64,000 nucleotides of DNA from a virus: IMG/VR virus record IMGVR_UViG_3300013005_003552, positions 64,001 through 128,000 of that record. The stretch is one strand, 5' to 3'. Every line of letters begins with the position of its first letter. The stretch's first letter is position 1. Of the stretch, positions 15,001 to 59,275 are shown in pieces. A program made the translations under genes and the position numbers. The notes beneath the pieces are model-generated. The model was not told the origin of the DNA and searched no databases. It saw only the letters and a program-made list of their open reading frames with translations.

Positions 15001-15419
15001 AAACATTTGGTTCAGAACCCAGTTCTGGTTCAGGATTTGATACAGGTGCATATGATGAACTCACAATTATTCCAGGATATCTAGACAGTATTAATACCAA
15101 CATCAGCAACCAACGAGCAGGTATTTGGCAAGTGGAAATTGCCAACGATTTGGTTGTCCTGACTTTTATACGACAAATTCTGCTTAACCAAGTGGTTACA
15201 GTAATTAGAGAAACAACCAAGCTGTTTTATGACCCGTTGATCAAGACGGGTAAAACAGTACCAGAGTATAGTTTGATCAGTACTAACCTGCCAGATAGCA
15301 CTCAAAACACCAGTTTTGACACCGAAGGCACCCGTTTTGTTAGCAACAGAGACAACTATACCGAACCAGGAGCTCTGGATAAATATATCAAGTTCCCTAA
15401 AACCGGAGTATTTAGATAA
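9093..15419 (+). CDS. 2108-aa baseplate/tail protein with YHYH-like domain, putative Ig repeats and BNR-like beta-propeller
   Basis: HSKILGWAIDGYPIYGPYGY...LDQSNGRFCVTPEFPNGTYAYF (YHYH family). LPPGL...G.I.G Ig-like repeats. Repeated VAVGxxGxIxxSxDGxxW blades. Confidence 0.75.
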   Translation: MAKLRWITPEGNLGTYAENTEVSLQLDVENPVAPAPSAGFDPRDSITGNGIENAVQTSILTDKTTWRIQTNNLTGLVTVGAFPNDKNLNRIAAQSIDLLTPYRGGLNRVALVQTPVSTGVIGISAVGIVLFAPASETTITSFDSNWTVNAVAAGVLGEDASGGQPAANGTYNYRTSQFINADAWQNLLAWKSGYRHTDGHSKILGWAIDGYPIYGPYGYDNPSTIGGVVRMRSGYTLVEKSGRPLPASVSVLPGRYPGTQIPVSTTQGLYPGMELRGPWPAKTYKIVRVLSNAIQVNAEINYEFRTDTRVQGIWPLGIFVQDYEYTAPSGTTLDQSNGRFCVTPEFPNGTYAYFMSQDLDDQPTFPYIVGARFYGSLSSDEVSGVANIEPQASNLTYSLLSGQLPPGLQVVPSGRIYGFPQVVTSGDPVAREFRFTIRVKNTVNQIADRTFSIFVNQIVLPTILPTGVRGEGVGQTRGNINLSFTNRGSGYFAANVAVSISAPDLLDSESALPGKIFLFANGAIKSIGLTKAGTGYTSIPTITFSGANTTTASATIDNLTSFGIEDLGYFFDSDPVVLQINALETSPTGKLEWSVSQGRLPPGLALSQSGLISGFALAPSAAGEAGTSAYDVGGYDQYVWDFEGAADSRRYQFTIRIYDGINYSYQRYSIGIYARSFFLVDNELITADSTLYSVDRDGYLYPSIITTSVELPPVRQLQSYAYRFQAYYANPNGQVKWSVNASGPARFDQGAAPSPDDQDNVYTIVPFDNKSFDQSDLSLPGGIFLDLNTGWLLGTLGTSTSYESTYEFIVTAYVDVPISESVTSRRSSQPVKFTLKVLSAAQDLVTWNTPTNLDSIDNGAISTLQIEATSRSNTSLTYRVKSGQYLRIPQGLRLLPNGLISGRTSFDFFSIDRNTSQIQFDTGTNTYDSKFTFTVIAEDVTGQIYSEKEFSLVVKNINQRPFENLYLKALLPAGLRQVFRSIVTDANLSSNDLIYRPNDPYFGVHLDLTMLVQAGLRAETAAHYVDAMSDHHINKKINFGTIRKAVARNIDGSIKYEVLYVDVLDYNSANRPGEIISVRRNTGIDYGTLISPGLDIDDYHSVDDRITRTDDFGLITSDDLTGENTVYTNSFANMAKDIERIGYEFQGALPDWMLSVQPETNQPLGLTRGLVLAYANPGEGDKLLYRYQAALEQSGFSVGDIMNSFKFTADRYQWDRTLSENYNADSNSFVRSQTTTFNRIPSVGIVDKGAWLIETSGTGNQLTSIAYKVGAGYLAIGANSAILQSRSGEKWAADNARINFTYTLGILNSLTAGSTSVIRFPSTSVVKIGDEIAQSSIFVSNARSFVTAIENSIRVSSNIANTIVSGTALEFVSWQDGTKFYANVTRTAAAGHSEVYIDTATNIQTGYAVYTKGIDLANAAVITANVGNTLFLSNVTTNVIPTGTSITFDDLRGNIEVLVTANTTPAFVNNITFTSVGNVSANYYPRLTAINAGATVLTKYIYANISVPPSANIQAGSDLTLVHRITTTAMAGNSVINVSDTTLLPIGSQIFNVTEIANSDNTAAWASVTPFGTSMYITVRTAGINGSIFRGMNVVGPGIPITARIAEISANATYSNLTVVFANSTVAAQSNVSINFSTPESVLENTSIIAKTDTSITLSNPLTANINVGYDNVITFGLTGVVLNKVISVADRWLAVGDRGLIIQKSVADRAWSQQFGLLYGDLKSVGVRSYTSGVNTLYTYVAVGNEGTVIRSTNGEIWSLPIITLANRTLTAVYHNVDTWIAVGEGGQIITSVDDGLTWTLDNSTTSLNLYDVYYAGQWVIVGQKGSVWLKNQEDTVWQRYTAGVTDTLRSVAFVNNQYVAVGDRGSIVYSTDGTSWRQSDRFVNNQLNAVSRDTVIPVAVGTAGVVLRESPNFTVTWAIRNVRFDQINLNTVQSVTQRGYSLQTGDTLIFAQQEGFGGVNDGWNLFNETFGSEPSSGSGFDTGAYDELTIIPGYLDSINTNISNQRAGIWQVEIANDLVVLTFIRQILLNQVVTVIRETTKLFYDPLIKTGKTVPEYSLISTNLPDSTQNTSFDTEGTRFVSNRDNYTEPGALDKYIKFPKTGVFR

Positions 15420-18400
15420 TGGCCAGCTTAGTAAATCCGTTTAATATCAATGGTAATTACCCAATCGCAGGGCAAGACAATGACAGTCAAGGCTTCCGCG
15501 ATAACTTTACCAACATCAAAAACAACTTCATTTTTATCAAACAAGAAGTTGAAGACCTGCAATCCAAAGTTATTCTTAAGAGTGCGCTCAGCGGAAGCTC
15601 GTTGGATAACAACTTTTTGGGCAGTCAGGTAAAAAATATTCAAACCAAGAATCAAAGTGAAACAGTGTATGACTGGGGCGAAGTAGGCGCAGCCACCGCT
15701 ACAGAAATTCAGCTGGATCTGGCTCTTGGCAATATTCACAAACTTAATGCAACTGGTTCAATCAAGATCAACTCTGTGATCAAGAACTGGCCAGCGGCGC
15801 TTCAGTTTGCACGATTGTTATTTTATGTTAACATCAGCAGTGTAGAAAACACATTGGAATTACCAAGTACACTGACCACCGATTTGTCTGGAATTCCTGG
15901 TTTGCGCACAGTGAGTTCCAGTAGGCTGATTACCTTTACTGATCCTGGTGATTACATTTTTGAATTCTCCAGTGTTGACAGTGGTACAACTACTTTTGTT
16001 CGCGAACTCACTCGCGGCAACCCAGTGTTCCGTGATCCCAACTTCTACATGGCCGGCATTGGCGGTTATCCAACTCCTACGCTGAGACTGGGATGGGGCA
16101 ATTTGTTTGCCGTAAGTGCCAAGATTGACAGTAACACCAAGGCAGGCACAGACACTTTCAGTGTGCGCGGCGGAGTAACTTCATTCCAGAATTTTGCAGA
16201 TGGCGGAAATAATCCTGCCACAATGACACAGGCCGGTTTTAGCGTTGCTAAAAGTCGTACTGCTGACCCAGGTGCAGCAGGTGCTGCCAATCCAACTGAA
16301 ACTGTGGTCAACACTGGTGACTACATTGGTTATTTTAACGGCCTAGCTTTCACAAAGAACAAAGACGATAGCAACAACAGTTATCAACAGGTAGCAGCCA
16401 TTGGCATGTATGCCACTGGTAGTAATACTTCATACGGCCTAGGCGGCAACATTGTGATCAGCACCAAGCGCGATGGTGGTGTAATGACTCCTGCAGTTAC
16501 CATTGACAACGATCAAAATGTTATTATCACTGGCTGCTTGACTGTTAATGGTACCACAACAACTATCAATTCTACTGTGATGACAGTGGATGACAAAAAC
16601 ATAATTGTGGCCAGCGGTGCAGCATCAGCAACCTTGGCCAATGGCGCTGGTCTCAGCGTGGATACAGCGTTTGCAAACATTGAATATGTAAACAGTGGGT
16701 TAACTTTGGCCAGCGACGATCGTTGGAGTTTCAACAAAGCAGTGACCATTGGCATGCCTTCTACACTTTCAAACAGCACAGCAACTGGTGCTTTAGTGGT
16801 ACAAGGCGGTGTAGGTGTTGGTGGTGACTTGAATGTGGGTGGTACATTTGGCCTGGCCAGCACCACAGATGCTACTAGCTCAACCACAGGTGCGTTTTCT
16901 GTGGCTGGCGGTATCAGTGCTCAAAAGAATATAATTGCCGGGACAAACTTATACTCAAACGCGACTACCACTGCAAGTAACTTGAATGCTGGAGCTTTCC
17001 AGGTACAAGGTGGTGCAGCCATCAAAGGTAATTTGTATGTTGGCGGGCAAACTGTTGACGGAGCTCTCAAAGGCGGTATGTTTGTGTTGGCAGGCAGTAG
17101 AGCCACAGATGTTTCTACAGGTGCATTGGTAGTCAAAGGCGGGGTTGGTATTGCAGGTAATTTGTATGTTGGTGACGCAGGCGGTGCAAATGGCCTGGTA
17201 ATTACCAGTACACTGCGTACCAATGGTACTGCAATGATTAACAGCAATGCAGATGCAAGGAGTGCTACAGCAGCATTGCGAGTGATTGGCGGCACACTGT
17301 TTGAAAGCAATGTGGTCATTGGAATTGGTTCTGGCTCACAAGGTCGTGTGTTCATTGACAATTCTGAAAATGTCACAGCTGGAGATATTTCCACAGGCGG
17401 CCTAGTACTAGGCAACGGCTCGGCTCGTGTGGGCATGAGCGTAAGCGGTGATATCAATATTGGTACCAGTGACTCCGGTTCTATATTCATTCTCAATAGA
17501 GAAGCCGCCCGGGGCACTCCTACCACATCACCAATCAAGCCAAACGAAACTGTACTAACTGGCGGCAATCCAACTTTGGGTGCTATGACTGCGCTGGGTG
17601 GCGTAAATGTGTTTGGTAACCTACACATAGGACAACCACACGACGGCACATCGTATGATAACAATACCAATACATGGTCTGGCGTTTACAACGGTGCAAC
17701 TACAAAACCAGTTGGTGCGTGGAGTGGCAACCTGGTACTCAACAGCGGCGCCTGGGCCACAAACTTCAACAGTGGCGCACTACAAATCAAACAAGTTATC
17801 CTTGCTGACGGCAGCACCAGTGATGGCGGGCTAGGTGTTGCAGGTAATGTGTATGCCAATGGCGCCAGCTATCTGGGTGGTTTAGGGTTCAGCAGTTCTT
17901 ATGCTAACCTGGTTGCAGCAAGTTCAACCGAAAGTACCAAAGGCGGAACAGATCCAAACGGTAGTCTGACAGTGCTAGGTGGCGCTGGTATTCAAAGCAA
18001 ACTCAATGTTGGCGGTGTTATTGCAGCCAATGCTGGAATCAACAGTACATCCAAGACTATCGGTTCTATTGTTATAACCGGCTCAGGCGGTCTTGGTGTG
18101 GGCGGCGGCATTACTGCTGCAAACATCAGTCTAGATGCAGCAACCAACACTCAAGAAAGTTTGCTTGTTCCGACCGGCACGCTGCTAACCACACCAAAAG
18201 TTGGCGCAGTTGAATTTGCTAGTGGAGTTTGGTATGCTACCCCAACCACCAGCAGCCGTGCTGTTATTCAAACACCACACATGTACGTTATCAGTGGCAA
18301 TGCTGCATTTAACAATGGTAGCCTTATTCCTACTGCTGGAACAAATACTGCTTATGGTATATTTGGCGGTACTTCTGGCACAGCAGGGCAATTGACCGTG

Positions 18401-18856
18401 GCAGCATCAACCACATATGAATTTGAGATTCAACTCAACATTACTCATGCTCTTACTCCTTCCAGTGGTACACTGTTGTTTAATTTTGGAGGTACAGCAA
18501 CATATACCATGTATCATTATCAAGTGTCGGTAGTTCCACAGGTGTACACCGATGGAGTAGCCACAGCAGCAGCTCCTACAAGTCCAGTAGATACAGTATG
18601 GTCTGGCACAACAACATTGCCCAGTATATCAACTGGTCAAGCCATAATACTAACTGCAAATACACTTGCAAATAAATCTATTAGAGCTAAAGGTATCTTG
18701 GTTATAAATGTTGGCGGAACTGTAATTCCTCAGATTGGATTTGGTGCTCCTAATGCACCTGGTGTGATCACTAGGGCTCTACAAGGATCATACTGGAAGA
18801 TGTCACCTGTTGGTGGTGCATCCGACATCTCAACTGGTAATTTTGCTGCATCATAA
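15419..18856 (+). CDS. Tail fibre protein (1145 aa)
   Basis: N-terminal YPIAGQDNDSQGFRDNF followed by a coiled coil, then many STxTGALxVxGGxGIxGxLxV shaft repeats. Confidence 0.75.
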   Translation: MASLVNPFNINGNYPIAGQDNDSQGFRDNFTNIKNNFIFIKQEVEDLQSKVILKSALSGSSLDNNFLGSQVKNIQTKNQSETVYDWGEVGAATATEIQLDLALGNIHKLNATGSIKINSVIKNWPAALQFARLLFYVNISSVENTLELPSTLTTDLSGIPGLRTVSSSRLITFTDPGDYIFEFSSVDSGTTTFVRELTRGNPVFRDPNFYMAGIGGYPTPTLRLGWGNLFAVSAKIDSNTKAGTDTFSVRGGVTSFQNFADGGNNPATMTQAGFSVAKSRTADPGAAGAANPTETVVNTGDYIGYFNGLAFTKNKDDSNNSYQQVAAIGMYATGSNTSYGLGGNIVISTKRDGGVMTPAVTIDNDQNVIITGCLTVNGTTTTINSTVMTVDDKNIIVASGAASATLANGAGLSVDTAFANIEYVNSGLTLASDDRWSFNKAVTIGMPSTLSNSTATGALVVQGGVGVGGDLNVGGTFGLASTTDATSSTTGAFSVAGGISAQKNIIAGTNLYSNATTTASNLNAGAFQVQGGAAIKGNLYVGGQTVDGALKGGMFVLAGSRATDVSTGALVVKGGVGIAGNLYVGDAGGANGLVITSTLRTNGTAMINSNADARSATAALRVIGGTLFESNVVIGIGSGSQGRVFIDNSENVTAGDISTGGLVLGNGSARVGMSVSGDINIGTSDSGSIFILNREAARGTPTTSPIKPNETVLTGGNPTLGAMTALGGVNVFGNLHIGQPHDGTSYDNNTNTWSGVYNGATTKPVGAWSGNLVLNSGAWATNFNSGALQIKQVILADGSTSDGGLGVAGNVYANGASYLGGLGFSSSYANLVAASSTESTKGGTDPNGSLTVLGGAGIQSKLNVGGVIAANAGINSTSKTIGSIVITGSGGLGVGGGITAANISLDAATNTQESLLVPTGTLLTTPKVGAVEFASGVWYATPTTSSRAVIQTPHMYVISGNAAFNNGSLIPTAGTNTAYGIFGGTSGTAGQLTVAASTTYEFEIQLNITHALTPSSGTLLFNFGGTATYTMYHYQVSVVPQVYTDGVATAAAPTSPVDTVWSGTTTLPSISTGQAIILTANTLANKSIRAKGILVINVGGTVIPQIGFGAPNAPGVITRALQGSYWKMSPVGGASDISTGNFAAS

Positions 18857-18859
18857 TCA

Positions 18860-18888
18860 TTGACTCTTGGTCCAGTTAGTGTTAAACT
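18860..18888 (+). promoter_or_regulatory. sigma70-type promoter for the mazG operon
   Basis: TTGACT (18860-65), 17 nt spacer, TAAACT (18883-88) with TG extended -10. Confidence 0.7.
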
Positions 18889-18907
18889 AACTGGACTGGA
18901 GATCAAC

Positions 18908-19342
18908 ATGAACATTGACCTAAACAAATATTCCGAATTCGTTGGTGCAGTAACCAGCGAAGCTTCTCGTGACTTAACCACATTCATGAACCGTCTAGAC
19001 TACTTGGACGGAAATTTTGATTACGAAAAAGACGCTCACGGGCCAGACATCAATGTCCCGCTGCTGCTGACAGGTGCTCTGGGACTTGCCGCAGAAACCG
19101 GTGAATTTTGTGAAATTCCAAAAAAGATCTTTTTTCAAGGCAAACCACTTACCGAAGAAAATGTGTTTCACATGAAACGCGAACTAGGCGATATCATGTG
19201 GTACTGGATTAATGCATGTAGAGCTTTGAATCTAGATCCAAACGAAGTCATTGCTGAGAATGTAAATAAATTGAAAGCTCGTTACCCAGGTGGCGAATTT
19301 GATGTACATCACAGCGAACACAGACAACAAGGCGATATATAA
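18908..19342 (+). CDS. mazG: MazG-like nucleoside triphosphate pyrophosphohydrolase
   Basis: GLAAETGEFCEIPKK...KRELGDIMWY...ENVNKLKARYP. ATG 18908 follows GGAG. Confidence 0.85.
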   Translation: MNIDLNKYSEFVGAVTSEASRDLTTFMNRLDYLDGNFDYEKDAHGPDINVPLLLTGALGLAAETGEFCEIPKKIFFQGKPLTEENVFHMKRELGDIMWYWINACRALNLDPNEVIAENVNKLKARYPGGEFDVHHSEHRQQGDI

Positions 19343-19587
19343 TGGGATTTCATCCATTAGTTGACAGTGTGACTCATCTAAAAGACGAAGAACTGTACAA
19401 CAAAATAACCGAACTTACAAATAAGATGAATTCTGCTTATAGACTAGGATCCGGGGATGCTTTGCGGCAAATGCAAATGATCATGCAACACTATCAAGAC
19501 GAGCTAGCAAATAGAAATCGCAAGCGTCTTGAGGACATGGAAAAGAACAGTAAAAACTTTAGCAAAATCATAGATATCAAAAAATGA
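19342..19587 (+). CDS. Hypothetical coiled-coil protein
   Basis: Translationally coupled to both neighbours (TAATG, ATGA). Confidence 0.65.
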   Translation: MGFHPLVDSVTHLKDEELYNKITELTNKMNSAYRLGSGDALRQMQMIMQHYQDELANRNRKRLEDMEKNSKNFSKIIDIKK

Positions 19588-20096
19588 AATACGATCAATA
19601 CGGAGTAGCGTATGCCAGCTGTGACGAGCTTTGCGACCTATTGTATCAAAAACCTGCACTTGACCTAGGCAAGGTTCATGTTATAGATCCCACTATCTAC
19701 AACTATGCGGTAGCTGCTTTGTATGCAGAATTTCCATCTCTTCAGATTTATAATCCTGATGTTGTGGATATAGAATCTTTTGATCATACTAACCAACAGC
19801 AATGGCTCATGCCTGAATCTTATCAATCGTTGGATATTGCAGAGCATGTGTTGTCATTATGCACAAATGATGCAGAACTACAACGAGTTGGCACTGAGCT
19901 GCTGCTGTTTCAAGAACGCAACTTATTCAACTTGCTCAAATATCTAAAATATCTTGTGGACACCATGCGAGCACACAACATTGTGTGGGGTGTTGGGCGA
20001 GGTAGTAGTGTGGCTAGTTATGTACTGTTTCTGCTGGGTGTGCATAAGATTAACAGTTTATATTATGATTTAGATCCCAATGAATTCCTCAAATAA
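19584..20096 (+). CDS. Stand-alone fragment of the DNA polymerase III alpha (DnaE) palm/NTPase domain
   Basis: LQRVGTEL...YLVDTMRAHNIVWGVGRGSSVASYVLFLLGVHKINSLYYDLDPNEFLK aligns with DnaE GPGRGSxAGSLVxYxLGITxxDPxxYxLxFERFL. Only 170 aa. Confidence 0.8.
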   Translation: MKYDQYGVAYASCDELCDLLYQKPALDLGKVHVIDPTIYNYAVAALYAEFPSLQIYNPDVVDIESFDHTNQQQWLMPESYQSLDIAEHVLSLCTNDAELQRVGTELLLFQERNLFNLLKYLKYLVDTMRAHNIVWGVGRGSSVASYVLFLLGVHKINSLYYDLDPNEFLK

Positions 20097-20099
20097 ATA
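20093..20099 (+). promoter_or_regulatory. T4-like late promoter (ATAAATA)
   Basis: Overlaps the stop of the DnaE fragment and is followed by RBS AGGAG. Confidence 0.55.
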
Positions 20100-20118
20100 T
20101 CTACCTTAGGAGAATAAA

Positions 20119-20547
20119 ATGGCAAAACAAATTTATAGAACAGCACAAGGCAAACCCATTGATTTGGATGCGCTTAGAGTGCGCAACGAACAGTCAGTGG
20201 CTGTGGGCAATATGAAAACCAATGCCCGCGGCGACGAACTTGGTCCGGGCGGTATTGTGGTACGCACACGCGAACAAGTGATGAAAGAATACTACAATAC
20301 CAATGCTGTGTACACCAAAGAACGAGTAGAGCAGCAACGAGAAGATGCTCAAAATGCCAGAGCAAATGTGCCACCTGTGAATACTGGCATTCCAGACGAA
20401 ATACTAGAGCAAGATCAAACCATGGATGAAATTGAGCAACCAAAAATGCGCGGTGCACTTGCAGACGCAGTGGCCAAGAGTACCAAGGTTGAACAAAAAC
20501 TTCTTCAACCAAAAAAGAACAATGGCAACGGACCGTCGAGGATCTAA
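20119..20547 (+). CDS. Hypothetical phage protein
   Basis: Strong RBS AGGAGA. N-terminal YRTAQGKPID...AVGNMKTNARGDELGPGG. Confidence 0.7.
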   Translation: MAKQIYRTAQGKPIDLDALRVRNEQSVAVGNMKTNARGDELGPGGIVVRTREQVMKEYYNTNAVYTKERVEQQREDAQNARANVPPVNTGIPDEILEQDQTMDEIEQPKMRGALADAVAKSTKVEQKLLQPKKNNGNGPSRI

Positions 20548-20967
20548 ATGAGCGAATTACCAATTGGACAAGGATTATTTCCCACACAAGGAAGTTATCG
20601 ACATACTCATCACATAGAAAAACTTCGCCCATTGGGCAACAATGTCTTGATCAAGGACATGAATTTTAGTGGTAGAACTCTTTCCAGTGGTATAGTGTTG
20701 TTAGGAGACGATGCCACTACCACCGGTATTCGTCCGCGCTGGGCGCAGGTATATGAAGTTGGTCCAGAACAACAAGATGTTGTTCCAGGACAATGGATCT
20801 TGGTAGAACACGGTCGCTGGAGTCGAGGCATTGAGGTTGAAATTGATAATGAGCAATTCACCTTAAGGCGAGTTGACCCAAACTGTATCATTTTTGTAAG
20901 TGACCACGCACCAGACGCCGATGATACCATTAGCTCTGCCGTCCAGGCACATAGCAAAACAAGATAA
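20548..20967 (+). CDS. groES: Co-chaperonin GroES-like protein
   Basis: LRPLGNNVLI...RTLSSGIVL...VYEVGP...DVVPGQWIL matches the Cpn10 pattern. Confidence 0.75.
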   Translation: MSELPIGQGLFPTQGSYRHTHHIEKLRPLGNNVLIKDMNFSGRTLSSGIVLLGDDATTTGIRPRWAQVYEVGPEQQDVVPGQWILVEHGRWSRGIEVEIDNEQFTLRRVDPNCIIFVSDHAPDADDTISSAVQAHSKTR

Positions 20968-20971
20968 CCAA

Positions 20972-21214
20972 ATGGGATTCCGAAAGCCCAGCCTTGAGGA
21001 TGCTTACGCAGCTATCCGTACAAGTCTGTTAGAAATAAATTCTCCGTACAACGATGGTTTCACCGGAATAGCTTGCAAGCAAGAGCTATATCAGTTAAAA
21101 TGCTGGTTAGAGGACAACTATGATAGTTTACCAATCTTTGATGGAGAAGACAAATGGGAACAGGAACGGATGATTCAAATCTTAAAGAGGAAGCCAAAAA
21201 ACGCAGCCACATGA
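20972..21214 (+). CDS. Hypothetical protein
   Basis: ATG 20972 just after the groES stop. Coupled to the next gene by ATGA. Confidence 0.6.
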   Translation: MGFRKPSLEDAYAAIRTSLLEINSPYNDGFTGIACKQELYQLKCWLEDNYDSLPIFDGEDKWEQERMIQILKRKPKNAAT

Positions 21215-21609
21215 CGGCTCGTCTTTATCGAGGCTTGCTTGATATTCTCAAAACCAAAAACGAACATCTAAGCACTGCGTTGGTTGCGCATATTCGCAGT
21301 TTTGATCGCGGCGAAGAATCAGAATTTAGCTACACCGAAATGATGGGCTTCTGGCGCATGCTCATGGAGTTGATTTTTAATGTGTATGTTCAAACAGTAC
21401 ACTTTGTTGGCGTACTACTGGTTGCCACACTGGTGGTCGTTGCATGGCCGCTGCGGTGCTTGATAGAATTGTTCACAGGCAGTTGGTTTGGCAAAAATTA
21501 TCAACATCAGGATGAGCCAGGGCAAGAACCTGTGTTTGACAAATCAGAAGAATCAAAAAATGTTGTGCGCCGAGTGGTGTACGAAGAAGCCAAGGTTGAG
21601 AAAAAATGA
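21211..21609 (+). CDS. Hypothetical membrane protein
   Basis: ATGA overlap at both ends. Hydrophobic segment VHFVGVLLVATLVVVAWPL. Confidence 0.6.
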   Translation: MTARLYRGLLDILKTKNEHLSTALVAHIRSFDRGEESEFSYTEMMGFWRMLMELIFNVYVQTVHFVGVLLVATLVVVAWPLRCLIELFTGSWFGKNYQHQDEPGQEPVFDKSEESKNVVRRVVYEEAKVEKK

Positions 21610-22523
21610 AAGAACTATGGGTTGAAAAATATCGTCCTTGTACCGTAAAAGAGTATGTGTTCATTGACAACAATCAACGAGAACAAGTTGTACAATGGAT
21701 CAAGGAAGGCCACATCCCACATCTCTTACTCAGTGGCGGCCCCGGTACCGGTAAAACCACACTAGCTCGTATGTTAATTCACGAACTTAAAGTGGACGAG
21801 TATGATGTGTTGCAGGTAAATGCAAGCAACGAAACCAAGGTTGAGACCATGAGAGACAAGGTGCTGGGATTTGCCAGCACCATGCCGTTTGGTGAGTTTA
21901 AGATAATTCTATTGGACGAAGCAGATTATCTTAGTCAAAACAGCCAGGCACTGTTGCGCAATGCTATGGAAACATATCATGCCAGTGTGCGATTTATTTT
22001 TACTTGTAACGCACCGCACAAGATAATCCCAGCACTGCACAGTCGTTGCCAAGGTTTCCACATTGCCAAACAGGATCACACAGAGTTTACTGCACGAGTG
22101 GCCACTGTGTTGGTTAGTGAAGGCATAGAATTTGATCTGGATACCTTGGACAGCTATGTCAAAGCAACATATCCAGATCTGCGTAAATGTTTGAATCTTG
22201 TGCAATTAAACAGCAACGACGGACATCTGAACAAGCCTCGCGAGGGCGATAAAGCAGTTGGGGACTGGAAACTGGATGCTGTTGAATTGTTCAAAGCTGG
22301 CAAAATTCGTGAAGCTCGTGTGTTGTTATGTTCACAAGCAGCACCAGAAGAAATGGAAGATATCTTTCGATGGATGTATGACAACATCACTTTATGGGGT
22401 ACCACGCACGAGAAACAAGACGAAGCAATCAAGATCATTCGTACAGGTCTTGTGAATCATGTGAGTTGTGCCGACCCTGAGATCAATCTCAGCGCAACCA
22501 TTATTGAACTGTCACAGATCTAA
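21606..22523 (+). CDS. Clamp loader AAA+ subunit (RFC small / T4 gp44-like)
   Basis: LWVEKYRP, Walker A GGPGTGKT, NAS, Walker B ILLDEAD, and SRC motif. Confidence 0.92.
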   Translation: MKELWVEKYRPCTVKEYVFIDNNQREQVVQWIKEGHIPHLLLSGGPGTGKTTLARMLIHELKVDEYDVLQVNASNETKVETMRDKVLGFASTMPFGEFKIILLDEADYLSQNSQALLRNAMETYHASVRFIFTCNAPHKIIPALHSRCQGFHIAKQDHTEFTARVATVLVSEGIEFDLDTLDSYVKATYPDLRKCLNLVQLNSNDGHLNKPREGDKAVGDWKLDAVELFKAGKIREARVLLCSQAAPEEMEDIFRWMYDNITLWGTTHEKQDEAIKIIRTGLVNHVSCADPEINLSATIIELSQI

Positions 22524-49590: not shown

Positions 49591-52248
49591 ATGAGTTATG
49601 TAGACGCTCTGTTTGACAGAGACAAAGACCGTATTCATGTTGTTGAGCGCAATGCCAGCGGCAGAGAGTACAGAGAATTTCCTGCAGAATATATTTTTTA
49701 CTACGACGATCCCCGTGGTAAATTTCGAACCATATACGATACTCCAGTAAGCAGATTTGCTACTCGTAACAGCAAAGAATTTCATAAAGAAATTAGAATC
49801 AACTCTGGCAAACGCATATGGGAAAGCGATATTAATCCCATTTTCCGATGTTTAGAACACAACTATTTGGGTGCCAAGTCACCCAAATTACAAACTGCGT
49901 TTTTTGACATTGAGGTAGACTTTGATCCTGTACGAGGGTTCTCCAGACCAGAGGACCCCTTTAATGCGGTGACTGCTATCAGCATTTATCTAGACTGGTT
50001 AAACAAACTGGTAACCTTGGTTGTTCCGCCCAAGAACATGAGCTGGGAGACCGCACAAGAAATTGCAACCAAATACGATAACTGTTTCTTGTTTGAACAA
50101 GAGGCAGAGTTATTAAACACTTTTCTTGACATCATCGAGGACGCTGATGTACTAAGTGGATGGAACTCCGAGGGTTTTGATATTCCGTATCTGGTCATGC
50201 GTACCACTCGTGTGCTGAGCAAAGATGATTGCCGGCGATTTTGCTTGTGGGGTCAACTGCCAAAAGAAAGACACTTTGAACGCTTTGGGGCTGAAAATTT
50301 AACTTTTGATTTAATTGGCCGTGTGCATCTTGACTATATGCAACTGTACCGCAAGTACACATATGAAGAACGCCATAGTTACAGTTTGGATGCAATTGGC
50401 GAGTATGAACTAGATGAGCGTAAGGTTGCATATGAAGGTACCTTGGATCAGCTGTACAACAAAGACTTTGAAAATTTCATCGACTACAATAGACAAGATG
50501 CCATGCTGGTGGCTAAACTAGATAAAAAATTGCGTTTCCTAGATCTAGCCAATGAACTGGCACATGACAACACTGTGCTGCTGCAAACCACCATGGGTGC
50601 AGTAGCAGTCACCGAGCAGGCTATTATCAACGAAGCACATCAACTGGGATTAATTGTGCCTAATAGGAGAAGAGATGATCAAGGAGATACGCAAGCAGCA
50701 GGTGCCTATGTTGCTTTCCCCAAAAGGGGCATGCACGACTGGGTTGGCGCCATCGACATCAACAGTCTCTACCCGTCAGCGATCCGTGCTCTTAACATGG
50801 GACCGGAAACAATTGTTGCTCAACTTAGACCGATAATGACAGATCGGCTCATTGCCGAACGCATAGCGACAGGAACTACCTTTACAGATGCATGGGAAGG
50901 TTTGTTTGGTACACTAGAGTACACGGCTGTGATGGAAAATCAACCAGGCACAGAAATTACCATTGATTGGGAGGATGGTAATACTACCTTGCACTCCGCA
51001 GCAGAAGTCTGGCGGTTGATCTTTGACTCAAATCAGCCGTGGACACTGAGCGCCAATGGTACTATCTTCACTTACGAAAAGAAGGGCATTATTCCTGGAT
51101 TGCTAGAACGCTGGTATGCAGAACGGAAAGAAATGCAGGCCAAAAAGAAAGAAGCAGACACCGACGAAGACAAAGCCTTTTGGGACAAACGACAGTTGGT
51201 TAAAAAGATTAACTTGAACAGTCTATACGGAGCTATCCTCAACCCAGGTTGTCGTTTCTTCGACAAGAGAATTGGTCAGAGCACTACTCTGACAGGAAGA
51301 ATTATTGCTAGGCACATGGATGCATATATCAATGAGTGCATCATGGGCACATACGACCATGTGGGTGATGCCATTATCTATGGAGACACTGATAGCTGTT
51401 ATTTCACAGCCTGGCCTGCTATTAAAGACGAAGTTGCCGCAGGACACATGGAATGGAGCAAGGAAACTTGTGTTCAGTTGTACGACACTATTGCAGAACA
51501 GGTTAATGCCAGCTTCCCAGGATTTATGGAACGGGCATGTCACTGTCCACGCAGCATGGGCAGTTTAATCAAAGGCGGACGAGAACTTGTAGCAGAAAAA
51601 GGTCTTTATCTTAAGAAAAAGCGTTATGCTGTGCTAATTTTTGACATGGAGGGCAACAGGTTAGACACTCATGGCAAACCAGGCAAGGTCAAAGCCACTG
51701 GTCTAGATCTCAAACGCAGCGATACCCCCAAAATAGTTCAAGATTTTCTTAGCAGTCTGCTGTTGGATGTGCTGACAGGTTGTAACAAAGAACATGTGTA
51801 TGACAAAGTGCGGGAATTCAAATACTCCTTTCAAGATCGTCCTGCCTGGGAAAAAGGTACCCCCAAGCGTGTTAACAATTTAACAAAATACACAAGAGAC
51901 GAAGAAAGGTTAGGCAAGGCTAACATGCCAGGACATGTTCGAGCTGCCATGAACTGGAATAATCTGCGACGCATGCATAGCGACAATTACAGTATGTCAA
52001 TCGTGGATGGTATGAAAACCATTGTGTGCAAGCTCAAAGACAATCCTTTAGGATTTACCAGTGTTGGTTATCCAACTGATGAATTACATATCCCAGCATG
52101 GTTCAAAGAACTTCCATTTGATGATGCATTAATGGAAACTACCATTGTGGATCAAAAAGTAGAAAACTTACTGGGTGTGTTGAACTGGAAGATTCCTGAA
52201 AACACAGAAATCAGCACCACATTTGAAGCATTGTTTACATTCGAATAA
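49591..52248 (+). CDS. polB: Family B DNA polymerase with 3'-5' exonuclease
   Basis: Exonuclease motifs FDIE, GWNSEGFD and YNRQD. Polymerase motifs DINSLYPS, KINLNSLYG, YGDTDS and KKRY. No intein. Confidence 0.97.
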   Translation: MSYVDALFDRDKDRIHVVERNASGREYREFPAEYIFYYDDPRGKFRTIYDTPVSRFATRNSKEFHKEIRINSGKRIWESDINPIFRCLEHNYLGAKSPKLQTAFFDIEVDFDPVRGFSRPEDPFNAVTAISIYLDWLNKLVTLVVPPKNMSWETAQEIATKYDNCFLFEQEAELLNTFLDIIEDADVLSGWNSEGFDIPYLVMRTTRVLSKDDCRRFCLWGQLPKERHFERFGAENLTFDLIGRVHLDYMQLYRKYTYEERHSYSLDAIGEYELDERKVAYEGTLDQLYNKDFENFIDYNRQDAMLVAKLDKKLRFLDLANELAHDNTVLLQTTMGAVAVTEQAIINEAHQLGLIVPNRRRDDQGDTQAAGAYVAFPKRGMHDWVGAIDINSLYPSAIRALNMGPETIVAQLRPIMTDRLIAERIATGTTFTDAWEGLFGTLEYTAVMENQPGTEITIDWEDGNTTLHSAAEVWRLIFDSNQPWTLSANGTIFTYEKKGIIPGLLERWYAERKEMQAKKKEADTDEDKAFWDKRQLVKKINLNSLYGAILNPGCRFFDKRIGQSTTLTGRIIARHMDAYINECIMGTYDHVGDAIIYGDTDSCYFTAWPAIKDEVAAGHMEWSKETCVQLYDTIAEQVNASFPGFMERACHCPRSMGSLIKGGRELVAEKGLYLKKKRYAVLIFDMEGNRLDTHGKPGKVKATGLDLKRSDTPKIVQDFLSSLLLDVLTGCNKEHVYDKVREFKYSFQDRPAWEKGTPKRVNNLTKYTRDEERLGKANMPGHVRAAMNWNNLRRMHSDNYSMSIVDGMKTIVCKLKDNPLGFTSVGYPTDELHIPAWFKELPFDDALMETTIVDQKVENLLGVLNWKIPENTEISTTFEALFTFE

Positions 52249-58092: not shown

Positions 58093-59275
58093 GTTATACT
58101 ACATGGGTCTTGAAAGTTACAAAGCTCGGTACACACTACAGCTAACAGAATGGAATCGTCGTGTGTTCGAACGACGCGGACTTGATGTTAGTTATGTACC
58201 AGGACTTACTCTGGACAATGGAGAAAAGATTGTGGTTGGTCAGGTGCTGGATGCACATGGTCGCACATACTTTGGCATGAGCCAGCTGATGAATCTAGTT
58301 AGACTAATGCAGCAAGGAGAAGTAACCAGTGAAGATGTTATCTACTTTGAAGACATGTTTCAGCCCGGTATTGAGAGCTTACCTTATATTCTCAATCAAG
58401 TGCCTGCTAATCTGCGTCCTCGCATTTTTGTCCGTTGTCTTGCTCAAGCCATTGATCCTGATGACTTCGTACATGTATGGGGCATGTCTAAGTGGATGGG
58501 CTTGTATGAAAAAATGGTATGCGAACTTGTCCGGGACTCAGGAGGCGCAGTACTAGCCACCAATGAAGAAATGGTCATGCACATGAAGATTGCAGGATGG
58601 GATTGTCCTATCTACAACATTTCAGGCCTGGCCTTTGGCAAGGATGAAGTGCGTGAGCGTGTACCTGGCGAACTCAAACCATTCCTTGAACGCAGTATGC
58701 GTGTGGGCTTTGCAGCTCGCTGGGATCAAGAGAAACAGCCCAACTTTTACATGGACTTGATTGAACTCTACCATGAGCGCAATCCCGGCAACACAGTAGA
58801 GTTTGCTGTGTTCTCTGGTGCGCCATTGCGTACCAACAATGACAGCTACATGGCTCGTACACGACAAATGCAAGCCGAAGGCAAACTGACAATCTATGAA
58901 GATCTAGAAAAGAACGACTACTATGCTCTTCTTGCTGACACTCGGGTGTTGTTCAATTGTGCTTTACAAGACTGGGTTTCTAACACAGTGAGCGAAGCAG
59001 ATACTCTTGGTTGCAATGTACTTTATCCTGCTTACCGTAGTTTCCCCGAGTCCTTTGGCAATGATCACACTAGATTGTATGTGCCTTGGTCATTGAAAGA
59101 CGCTTGTAAGAAACTGGAGAAACTTTTGTACCTGGAAAGTTCTCGTATGGGCAAGATCAGTGACTGGACCAATGGCACTGTAGATCGTATTGTCGACATC
59201 ATCGAAGGCCAAGGCGAGCAATGGTTGCGCATGAGTACAGACTATCGTAAACACACTCACGAAAGTAAATTCTAA
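58085..59275 (+). CDS. GT-B fold (GT4-like) glycosyltransferase
   Basis: VGFAARWDQEKQP...LEKNDYYALLADTRVLFNCALQDWVSNTVSEADTLGCNVLYPAYRSFPE. Confidence 0.8.
   Translation: MRKLYYMGLESYKARYTLQLTEWNRRVFERRGLDVSYVPGLTLDNGEKIVVGQVLDAHGRTYFGMSQLMNLVRLMQQGEVTSEDVIYFEDMFQPGIESLPYILNQVPANLRPRIFVRCLAQAIDPDDFVHVWGMSKWMGLYEKMVCELVRDSGGAVLATNEEMVMHMKIAGWDCPIYNISGLAFGKDEVRERVPGELKPFLERSMRVGFAARWDQEKQPNFYMDLIELYHERNPGNTVEFAVFSGAPLRTNNDSYMARTRQMQAEGKLTIYEDLEKNDYYALLADTRVLFNCALQDWVSNTVSEADTLGCNVLYPAYRSFPESFGNDHTRLYVPWSLKDACKKLEKLLYLESSRMGKISDWTNGTVDRIVDIIEGQGEQWLRMSTDYRKHTHESKF

Follow-up and report, generated by a model that had tools for sequence, protein, structure and literature searches.

Why does a phage that carries an intact family B DNA polymerase also encode a 170-residue protein that resembles a slice of the bacterial replicase DnaE and ends just ahead of the catalytic aspartates? 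This question is raised by an open reading frame (ORF) at 19584..20096 of a 64,000-nucleotide stretch of viral DNA (positions 64,001 to 128,000 of IMG/VR record IMGVR_UViG_3300013005_003552), the whole of which we call the window. An earlier reading of these letters, made without database searches and called here the sequence-only reading, had proposed that the ORF encodes one of the two chains of a minimal C-family nucleotidyltransferase that has no intein, or else a decoy or inhibitor of the host replisome. We conclude, with a probability of roughly 0.85, that it encodes the N-terminal chain, piece A, of a two-gene minimal DNA polymerase III (Pol III) alpha of the T4-related group 2.2 jumbo phages, the other chain, piece B, being the product of a distant gene. 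The two-chain proposal is supported at the level of the family, with activity predicted from sequence and structural models, and the decoy proposal gained no support, since piece A is always accompanied by a partner in which every catalytic residue is retained.

The piece A gene and its parts are as follows.

19584..20096, plus strand: piece A gene, predicted N-terminal, nucleoside triphosphate (NTP)-binding chain of a split minimal DNA Pol III alpha, 170 residues (ORF, PF07733, phrog_11127).

19584..19793, plus strand: residues 1-70, a family-specific N-terminal region without DnaE counterpart (no Pfam match; outside the DnaE structural match).

19794..20093, plus strand: residues 71-170, first half of a C-family palm (helices, GRGS strand, two helices), corresponding to about residues 279-393 of Escherichia coli DnaE (VIA-align and hidden Markov model, HMM).

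19995..20006, plus strand: GRGS (G138 R139 G140 S141), the hG[GS] nucleotide-binding motif of Pol-beta-type palms (invariant columns in alignments A2, A5 and A8).

20082..20096, plus strand: C-terminal EFLK and stop TAA, the conserved break point, equal to DnaE ..RFL392 (family and DnaE alignments).

As the sequence-only reading had described, the gene is coupled to an operon, its ATG overlapping the TGA of an 81-residue upstream ORF (ATGA, 19584-19587), and the protein carries GRGS at residues 138-141 and ends at EFLK; the C terminus reads ...GVGRGSSVASYVLFLLGVHKINSLYYDLDPNEFLK, followed by the stop TAA at 20094-20096. In Pfam, residues 97-169 matched positions 22-94 of the 260 positions of PF07733 (DNA_pol3_alpha; E 2.9e-7, score 30.8 bits where 23.9 is the cut-off), and the search returned no PHP domain, no intein/Hint match and no domain besides PF07733, in line with the claim that both PHP and intein are lacking. 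The family HMM aligned residues 100-169 of piece A to E. coli DnaE 323-392 and residues 95-169 to Taq 380-454. Because the alignment reaches DnaE 392, piece A comes to its end at the L of FERFL, with D401/D403 about nine residues further on, which agrees with the expectation that the catalytic aspartates should follow within about 10 residues of the break. None of these aspartates is on piece A itself.

The structure points to the same enzyme family. Usable structural Z-scores for both pieces were taken from VIA-align. The AlphaFold model of piece A, with a predicted local distance difference test (pLDDT) of 85.5, superposed through its residues 71-170 on DnaE 279-393, Mycobacterium tuberculosis DnaE1 307-413 and PolC 825-965, with Z-scores of 8.4-10.5 over 91-96 aligned residues and a root-mean-square deviation (rmsd) of 2.2-3.0 Å. 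The best 14 chains were all C-family polymerases, and the next chain had a Z-score of 2.1.

Is piece A a fragment, or does it end where it should? The profile phrog_11127 (171 positions) matched it over profile positions 11-171 (E 8e-41), and its homologues in a large protein collection, grouped at 90% identity, make up at least 8000 clusters with lengths nearly all in the range 169-175 residues, making the protein very common in metagenomes. All 28 family members that were aligned end 0-1 residue past EFL[KRE]. The proteins of the cultured phages 121Q, Atu_ph07 and MIJ3 share these ends and are 35-40% identical to piece A of the window, and in an alignment that includes them G136, G138, R139, G140, S141, S145, E167, F168 and L169 are invariant. 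A tblastn search of 50,697 phage records with piece A matched 93 cultured records, all from giant T4-related myoviruses (the 121Q/RaK2/GAP32/CBB group, PA5oct, Atu_ph07, SCTP-2 and Xoo-sp13), with every match finishing at query residue 169 or 170. Against a relative that is 80% identical, the ratio of non-synonymous to synonymous substitution rates (dN/dS) was 0.21; the substitutions lay almost all in residues 1-83, and residues 84-170 were almost unchanged. Conservation of the break point and dN/dS, which the sequence-only reading had named as checks, thus gave a break that is invariant across the family and a gene under purifying selection. We conclude that piece A belongs to a conserved family and is not a decayed fragment, because its length and end are shared across clusters and its dN/dS is close to 0.2. 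The sole longer relative from a word-based search, P0124 (360 residues, from a JGI metagenome), has a 190-residue extension ahead of the piece A homologue and an unchanged C-terminal end; the extension may represent a genuine extra domain, or the gene call may have run the upstream ORF and the homologue together.

Where, then, are the aspartates? PF07733 matched once per genome in complete relatives, at piece A (profile positions 16-98), and the finger-domain profile PF17657 gave weak matches (E ~0.007) to two small, far-off ORFs, which begin MKNIPDIDIDF in Atu_ph07 and ...RTDIDIDF in 121Q. These ORFs led to piece B, a separate gene for a protein of about 190-200 residues that begins M(x)2-7-DIDIDF. 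A separate ORF starting near PDIDID, for which a search had been suggested, was therefore present in all 8 complete relatives examined, namely in 3/3 cultured jumbo-phage genomes checked (121Q, Atu_ph07 and MIJ3) and in 5/5 IMG/VR genomes that carry piece A and are at least 90% complete; three partial genomes had it too. The two genes lie 35-260 kb apart in IMG/VR genomes, and the only IMG/VR records carrying piece A without piece B are those that are 33-80% complete. Among the same 50,697 phage records, tblastn found piece B in 96 and piece A in 93, with near-identical tallies by genus. When the piece B profile was run against 1.84 billion representatives, 493 clusters matched at E ≤ 0.001 (150 representatives listed), almost all of them 185-215 residues long, and the profile match began at residues 2-11 of the proteins.

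Most records annotate piece B as "hypothetical protein". In Atu_ph07 (MF403008.1) the deposited version, AUZ94883.1 (58304-58798, 164 residues), starts at an internal codon, which removes the catalytic DIDIDF; the ORF that begins MKNIPDIDIDF starts at 58879 (58304-58879).

Piece B holds what piece A lacks. Over 76 diverse members, D8, D10 and D12 of the DxDxD motif, K71, D73 and P142 (RPG) are invariant, and H39, G42, R141, K144, K171 and H174 (FKKSH) are nearly so; K71 and D73 correspond to E. coli K553 and D555, and the finger motifs RPG and F-K-K-S-H..Y are retained. Four short collinear stretches relate the sequence to DnaE (E. coli 403-422, 540-559, 615-641 and 742-767). In the piece B model (pLDDT 96.8), 190 of 195 residues could be aligned on PolC 966-1296 with Z 9.8 and rmsd 3.4, on Taq 457-838 with Z 9.5, and on E. 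coli 395-781 with Z 8.0. The top 13 chains were all C-family, followed by a chain with Z 3.2. In E. coli numbering the first chain reaches 393 and the second one takes over at 395, two residues after that end. No spare sequence remains at the break, with piece A ending 0-1 residue past EFLK and piece B profiles starting at residues 2-11, and no intein/Hint match was found in piece B with Pfam. Elsewhere piece B is much reduced: E. coli 423-539 has shrunk to about 30 residues and 642-741 to about 13, nothing is present beyond approximately 781, and the PHP domain is absent as well. We take the first of these stretches to include the thumb (433-510, following Lamers et al. 2006).

Do the two halves belong together? 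For the co-folding of the two chains, another of the proposed checks, we used A and B from a complete genome (G001) whose piece A is 59% identical to that of the window. The pair gave ipSAE values of 0.92, 0.92 and 0.91, compared with 0.00 for the best control; the mark applied to this score was reached by 58/80 solved complexes and 2/110 mismatched pairs. The runs shared at least 93% of their contacts, with a partner pLDDT of 91. In the tightest contacts W135/G136 of A, on the GRGS strand, lie against residues 11-13 of B, on the DxD strand, a pairing that yields the arrangement of a Pol-beta-type palm. The N-terminal region of A (residues 1-9, 19-32 and 63-76) touches residues 45-53 and 67-70 of B, and the most conserved surface of piece A (W74, W135-S142) is the predicted interface with piece B. 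The motif set of a Pol-beta-type palm is complete only across both chains, with GRGS in A and D10-x-D12 and K71-x-D73 in B.

In one case nature has joined the halves. The protein P0287 (375 residues) contains A, the linker DNKEGIYNIA and B in a single ORF (...KEFIK-DNKEGIYNIA-DFDIDT...), encoded at L104:1066-2193 (plus strand) on a 2.4-kb ENA contig from an AT-rich, Asn-rich genome. It is the only single-chain A-B form among the 150 piece B representatives listed of 493, and the gene downstream of it resembles the usual convergent neighbour of piece B. P0287 could preserve the ancestral condition from before the split, or it could have been fused secondarily. MAFFT misaligned the fusion when A and B were added as partial rows (A rows were placed over the B half), and A and B were modelled separately.

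What is established is the identity of the fold, that the break is conserved and that A and B occur together, along with purifying selection, a co-fold of high confidence and one naturally fused protein. All the classic catalytic residues of a C-family palm are kept, divided between two chains whose genes both lie in replication modules. We propose that piece A would supply the first half of the palm, that is the GRGS strand and helix, along with its 70-residue family-specific N-terminal region; the GRGS element is the one understood to hold the phosphates of the incoming nucleotide in DnaE and PolC. Piece B, encoded tens to hundreds of kb away in a primase/helicase module and starting 2-11 residues ahead of DIDIDF, would supply the two metal-binding aspartates and would add the K-x-D strand with the third aspartate and pared-down fingers with RPG and KSH. 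No intein would take part in assembly: the chains would jointly complete a single beta-sheet in which the GRGS strand of A lies beside the DxD strand of B, and the predicted assembly is a non-covalent heterodimeric nucleotidyltransferase of about 365 residues that would lack the PHP/exonuclease, thumb, clamp-binding and OB modules. The gene neighbourhoods and the invariant catalytic residues suggest that the enzyme acts on phage DNA alongside the PolB replicase. Conservation of the finger motifs that face template and primer leads us to favour, as its most likely role, that of an auxiliary polymerase that depends on a template and serves in repair, in gap filling or on one strand.

Several observations weigh against this account. 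The piece B profile had no significant match among PDB sequences (E ~0.4), and Foldseek searches with the models of both pieces returned nothing at E ≤ 0.001, their E-values reaching only ~1e-2, with C-family polymerases in the top ranks. Both the thumb and some 100 residues of the fingers (E. coli 642-741) are missing from the two-chain enzyme, and this finger stretch presumably includes the arginines that hold the incoming deoxynucleoside triphosphate. The invariant E167 of piece A, moreover, occupies the position of DnaE R390, the arginine of FERFL. Templated, processive synthesis is not assured because of the loss of thumb and fingers and this glutamate. The result of the co-fold may stem from likeness to solved DnaE and PolC structures; as a model it shows that the halves fit as one palm, and binding in a cell is beyond its reach.

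It is also important to note that the two-chain state of the window phage is inferred from its relatives. Searches with the proteins of two piece B genes and with a DNA pattern for DIDIDF did not find piece B in the window or in the 144-kb virus record to which the window belongs, where we counted one PF07733 match and no PF17657 match. That record is estimated to be 39% complete, and neither the zinc-finger gene that neighbours piece B nor a DnaB-type helicase, which lies a few kb from piece B in relatives, was found in its 144 kb. A piece B outside the record fits these data because the zinc-finger neighbour and the DnaB helicase are also absent and the completeness is only about 39%; on the simplest reading, piece B and the rest of the primase/helicase module would be encoded in the part of the genome that the record lacks. 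What the record does contain is of the group 2.2 type: PolB and an AAA+ clamp loader, with no other Pol III domains.

What else could the gene be? Covering only some 100 of the roughly 1160 residues of the full protein and stopping right ahead of the active site, it might look like the decaying remnant of a full-length dnaE, or like an assembly or frameshift artefact. We give this next to no credence, as thousands of homologues have the identical length and end, the dN/dS of 0.21 and the near-constancy of residues 84-170 against the 80%-identical relative speak of selection, the gene is translationally coupled to the one upstream in a neighbourhood kept in 76/77 loci, no further DnaE-like sequence was found downstream of piece A in any frame, and in none of the relatives does a full-length dnaE occupy this place. 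Being small, free-standing and homologous to a component of the host replisome, in a phage with its own replicase, the protein could instead mimic part of the host DnaE and disturb the host replisome by itself. Such a decoy is very improbable, given that A and B co-occur essentially one-to-one, that the surface most conserved in A is the one predicted to meet B, that a decoy would have no need of an invariant GRGS, and that P0287 fuses A to B. From general knowledge, we also take the part of DnaE matched by A to be buried palm, with no known docking site for epsilon, beta or tau.

A and B might alternatively form an active nucleotidyltransferase that does not copy a template and works in 3' tailing, short primer or patch synthesis, or the making of a nucleotide signal, as other Pol-beta-fold enzymes perform such additions. 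The loss of the thumb and the shrinkage of the equivalents of E. coli 423-539 and 642-741 to 30 and 13 residues would suit such an enzyme, as would the lack of PHP, clamp-binding and OB domains anywhere in complete relatives and the presence of a complete PolB with its own exonuclease domain. However, the finger motifs that lie on template and primer in DnaE (RPG, F-K-K-S-H..Y) are nearly invariant, both genes are located in DNA-replication modules, and Iyer, Anantharaman, Krishnan, Burroughs and Aravind (Viruses 2021, PMC7824862) assign Mg2+ and template binding to the C-terminal unit; we therefore regard this reading as unlikely. Rather doubtful, though worth keeping in mind, is a wider version in which the two chains are a stripped-down template-independent or short-patch nucleotidyltransferase within a larger assembly, or else a surviving ancestral C-family core as raised by Iyer et al. 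The 70-residue N-terminal region of A, the 142-residue product of the next gene and the C2H2 protein coupled to piece B are candidate extra elements that might replace the missing thumb and fingers, and under an ancestral-core reading the fused P0287 could mark the unsplit state.

We return to the proposed auxiliary two-chain polymerase and to the genes around its first chain, which are listed here with the intact polymerase of the window.

19342..19587, plus strand: 81-residue ORF (phrog_15348), translationally coupled to piece A; upstream of piece A in 75/81 related loci.

20119..20547, plus strand: 142-residue ORF (phrog_14844; no Pfam match), the downstream neighbour; after piece A in 76/77 loci, with a gap of 12-71 nt.

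20548..20967, plus strand: GroES/gp31-like co-chaperonin gene (PF00166, E 3.8e-5; phrog_931, phrog_3188); downstream in 72/73 loci.

21606..22523, plus strand: RFC/gp44-type clamp-loader AAA+ subunit (PF00004, PF13177); same position in 121Q, Atu_ph07 and MIJ3.

49591..52248, plus strand: family B DNA polymerase, intact, 885 residues (PF00136, E 1e-32; PF03104, E 2e-18).

The order of small ORF, piece A, ORF of 115-140 residues, GroES-like gene, small ORF and clamp loader is common to 121Q, Atu_ph07, MIJ3 and the window, and the neighbourhood of piece A is kept in 76/77 uncultured loci. The intact family B polymerase at 49591 was correctly recognized in the sequence-only reading and is presumed to be the main replicase. 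The next gene had been described there as unrelated to DnaE, with a ribosome-binding site and promoter motif of its own. Two of these points stood: hhalign of its product against piece B gave a probability of 0.1%, and AGGAG lies 6 nt ahead of the ATG of 20119..20547. The third is reduced to a candidate promoter, AATAAATA at 20092-20099, which matches the T4 late consensus at 7/8 positions and overlaps the piece A stop; the exact consensus, TATAAATA, occurs twice in the whole window, which is chance level. A promoter and terminator scan of 18700-21700 found no sigma-70-like site or terminator in the 22-nt gap between piece A and the next gene.

The product of 20119..20547 had been considered as the carrier of the missing DxD strand, with KPIDLDAL resembling PDxDxD, and was rejected, the first Asp being Asn in many homologues. 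As the second half of the polymerase it was likewise set aside on the hhalign probability of 0.1%, the true partner having been found elsewhere. The protein follows piece A in 121Q, Atu_ph07 and MIJ3 too. Its first ~55 residues are conserved (G..[IV][DN].D...NE..[IV]AVGNM..NARGDELGPGG), the middle is variable and acidic, and close relatives share a C-terminal motif, LRG.LADAVAK...V.QKLL.PKK. Further upstream, a 1145-residue ORF at 15419-18856 (plus strand), directly ahead of the MazG gene (18860-19342), is rich in G, A, S, T and N with fibre-like repeats, and the gene in the same place is called "structural protein" in 121Q and "hemagglutinin protein" in Atu_ph07; it is probably a tail-fibre or decoration protein.

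The surroundings of piece B in relatives are those of a replication gene as well. Piece B sits between UvsW and the primase/gp41 helicase. Just upstream of it, in 10/11 loci, is a gene for a protein of about 240 residues with an N-terminal C2H2-like zinc finger (a weak Pfam match; L096:749-1486, plus strand, in G001 and L092:786-1493 in MIJ3), and in G001 and MIJ3 this gene and piece B are translationally coupled by an ATGA-type overlap. A convergent gene of about 139 residues lies directly downstream in 11/11 loci. In G001 alone, a 229-residue ORF with an HNH-like motif (..HHIIPRS..GN..L..REH..; L096:2059-2748, minus strand) intervenes between piece B and this usual convergent neighbour, and is probably a homing-endonuclease insertion.

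If these assignments are right, the bacterial replicative polymerase has its smallest known core in this family, whose two chains, without an intein, add up to about 365 residues, in phages that replicate with an archaeo-eukaryotic-type PolB. An active enzyme would show the minimum of DnaE parts needed for catalysis and would be a natural split-enzyme pair, and one would have to ask what makes giant phages retain a second polymerase from another family. Our literature search found no experimental work on split mini-Pol III for any member. The window gene is an additional uncultured member of a family described computationally, and its value lies mainly in correct annotation: it should be annotated as the N-terminal chain of a split mini-Pol III, and neither as "DNA polymerase III alpha subunit" nor as a pseudogene.

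How does this system compare with those already known? The split minimal Pol III of group 2.2 jumbo phages was described computationally by Iyer et al. (PMC7824862), whose article arrives independently at the same interpretation, so that the two-chain idea is already published; the authors propose that mini-Pol III cooperates with PolB on one strand or in repair, and that it is a possible surviving model of the ancestral core of C-family polymerases. Their N-terminal unit agrees with piece A in being a stand-alone protein of about 170 residues that forms the NTP-binding half of the Pol III palm, in belonging to a T4-related giant phage with PolB and an RFC-type clamp loader and, going by the relatives, probably a far-away partner gene, and in its synteny in 121Q, Atu_ph07 and MIJ3/PA5oct. 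The window copy differs in no essential point; it comes from an uncultured phage, with 35-40% identity to cultured members and a partner that presumably lies outside the fragment. Relative to the passages of that article used here, our analysis adds the junction at E. coli 393/395, the A-B fusion, the co-fold, the family sizes and the constant gene neighbours of each piece. The MIJ3 paper discusses only an intein in PolB.

Compared with DnaE and PolC of known structure (PDB 2HNH, 2HPI, 3E0D, 5LEW and 3F2B), piece A has the same palm fold and GRGS, and piece B has DxD, K-x-D, RPG and KSH in the same order. Those enzymes are, in contrast, single chains of about 1160 residues, whereas the split system has two chains of about 170 and 195 residues, lacks the PHP, thumb, beta-clamp-binding, OB and tau-binding domains and about 100 finger residues, and has E in place of R at the FERFL arginine. 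It is not a full-length C-family replicase, piece A having neither the aspartates nor a PHP domain and piece B spanning DnaE 395-781 in 195 residues. In cyanobacteria DnaE is also encoded in two parts, DnaE-N and DnaE-C, which the Ssp/Npu DnaE split intein splices into full-length DnaE, and the break there lies in the fingers. Both systems build a C-family catalytic subunit from two distant genes; the phage pair differs from the cyanobacterial one in that it has no intein residues and is broken inside the palm, and its product is presumably a miniature enzyme that stays as two chains.

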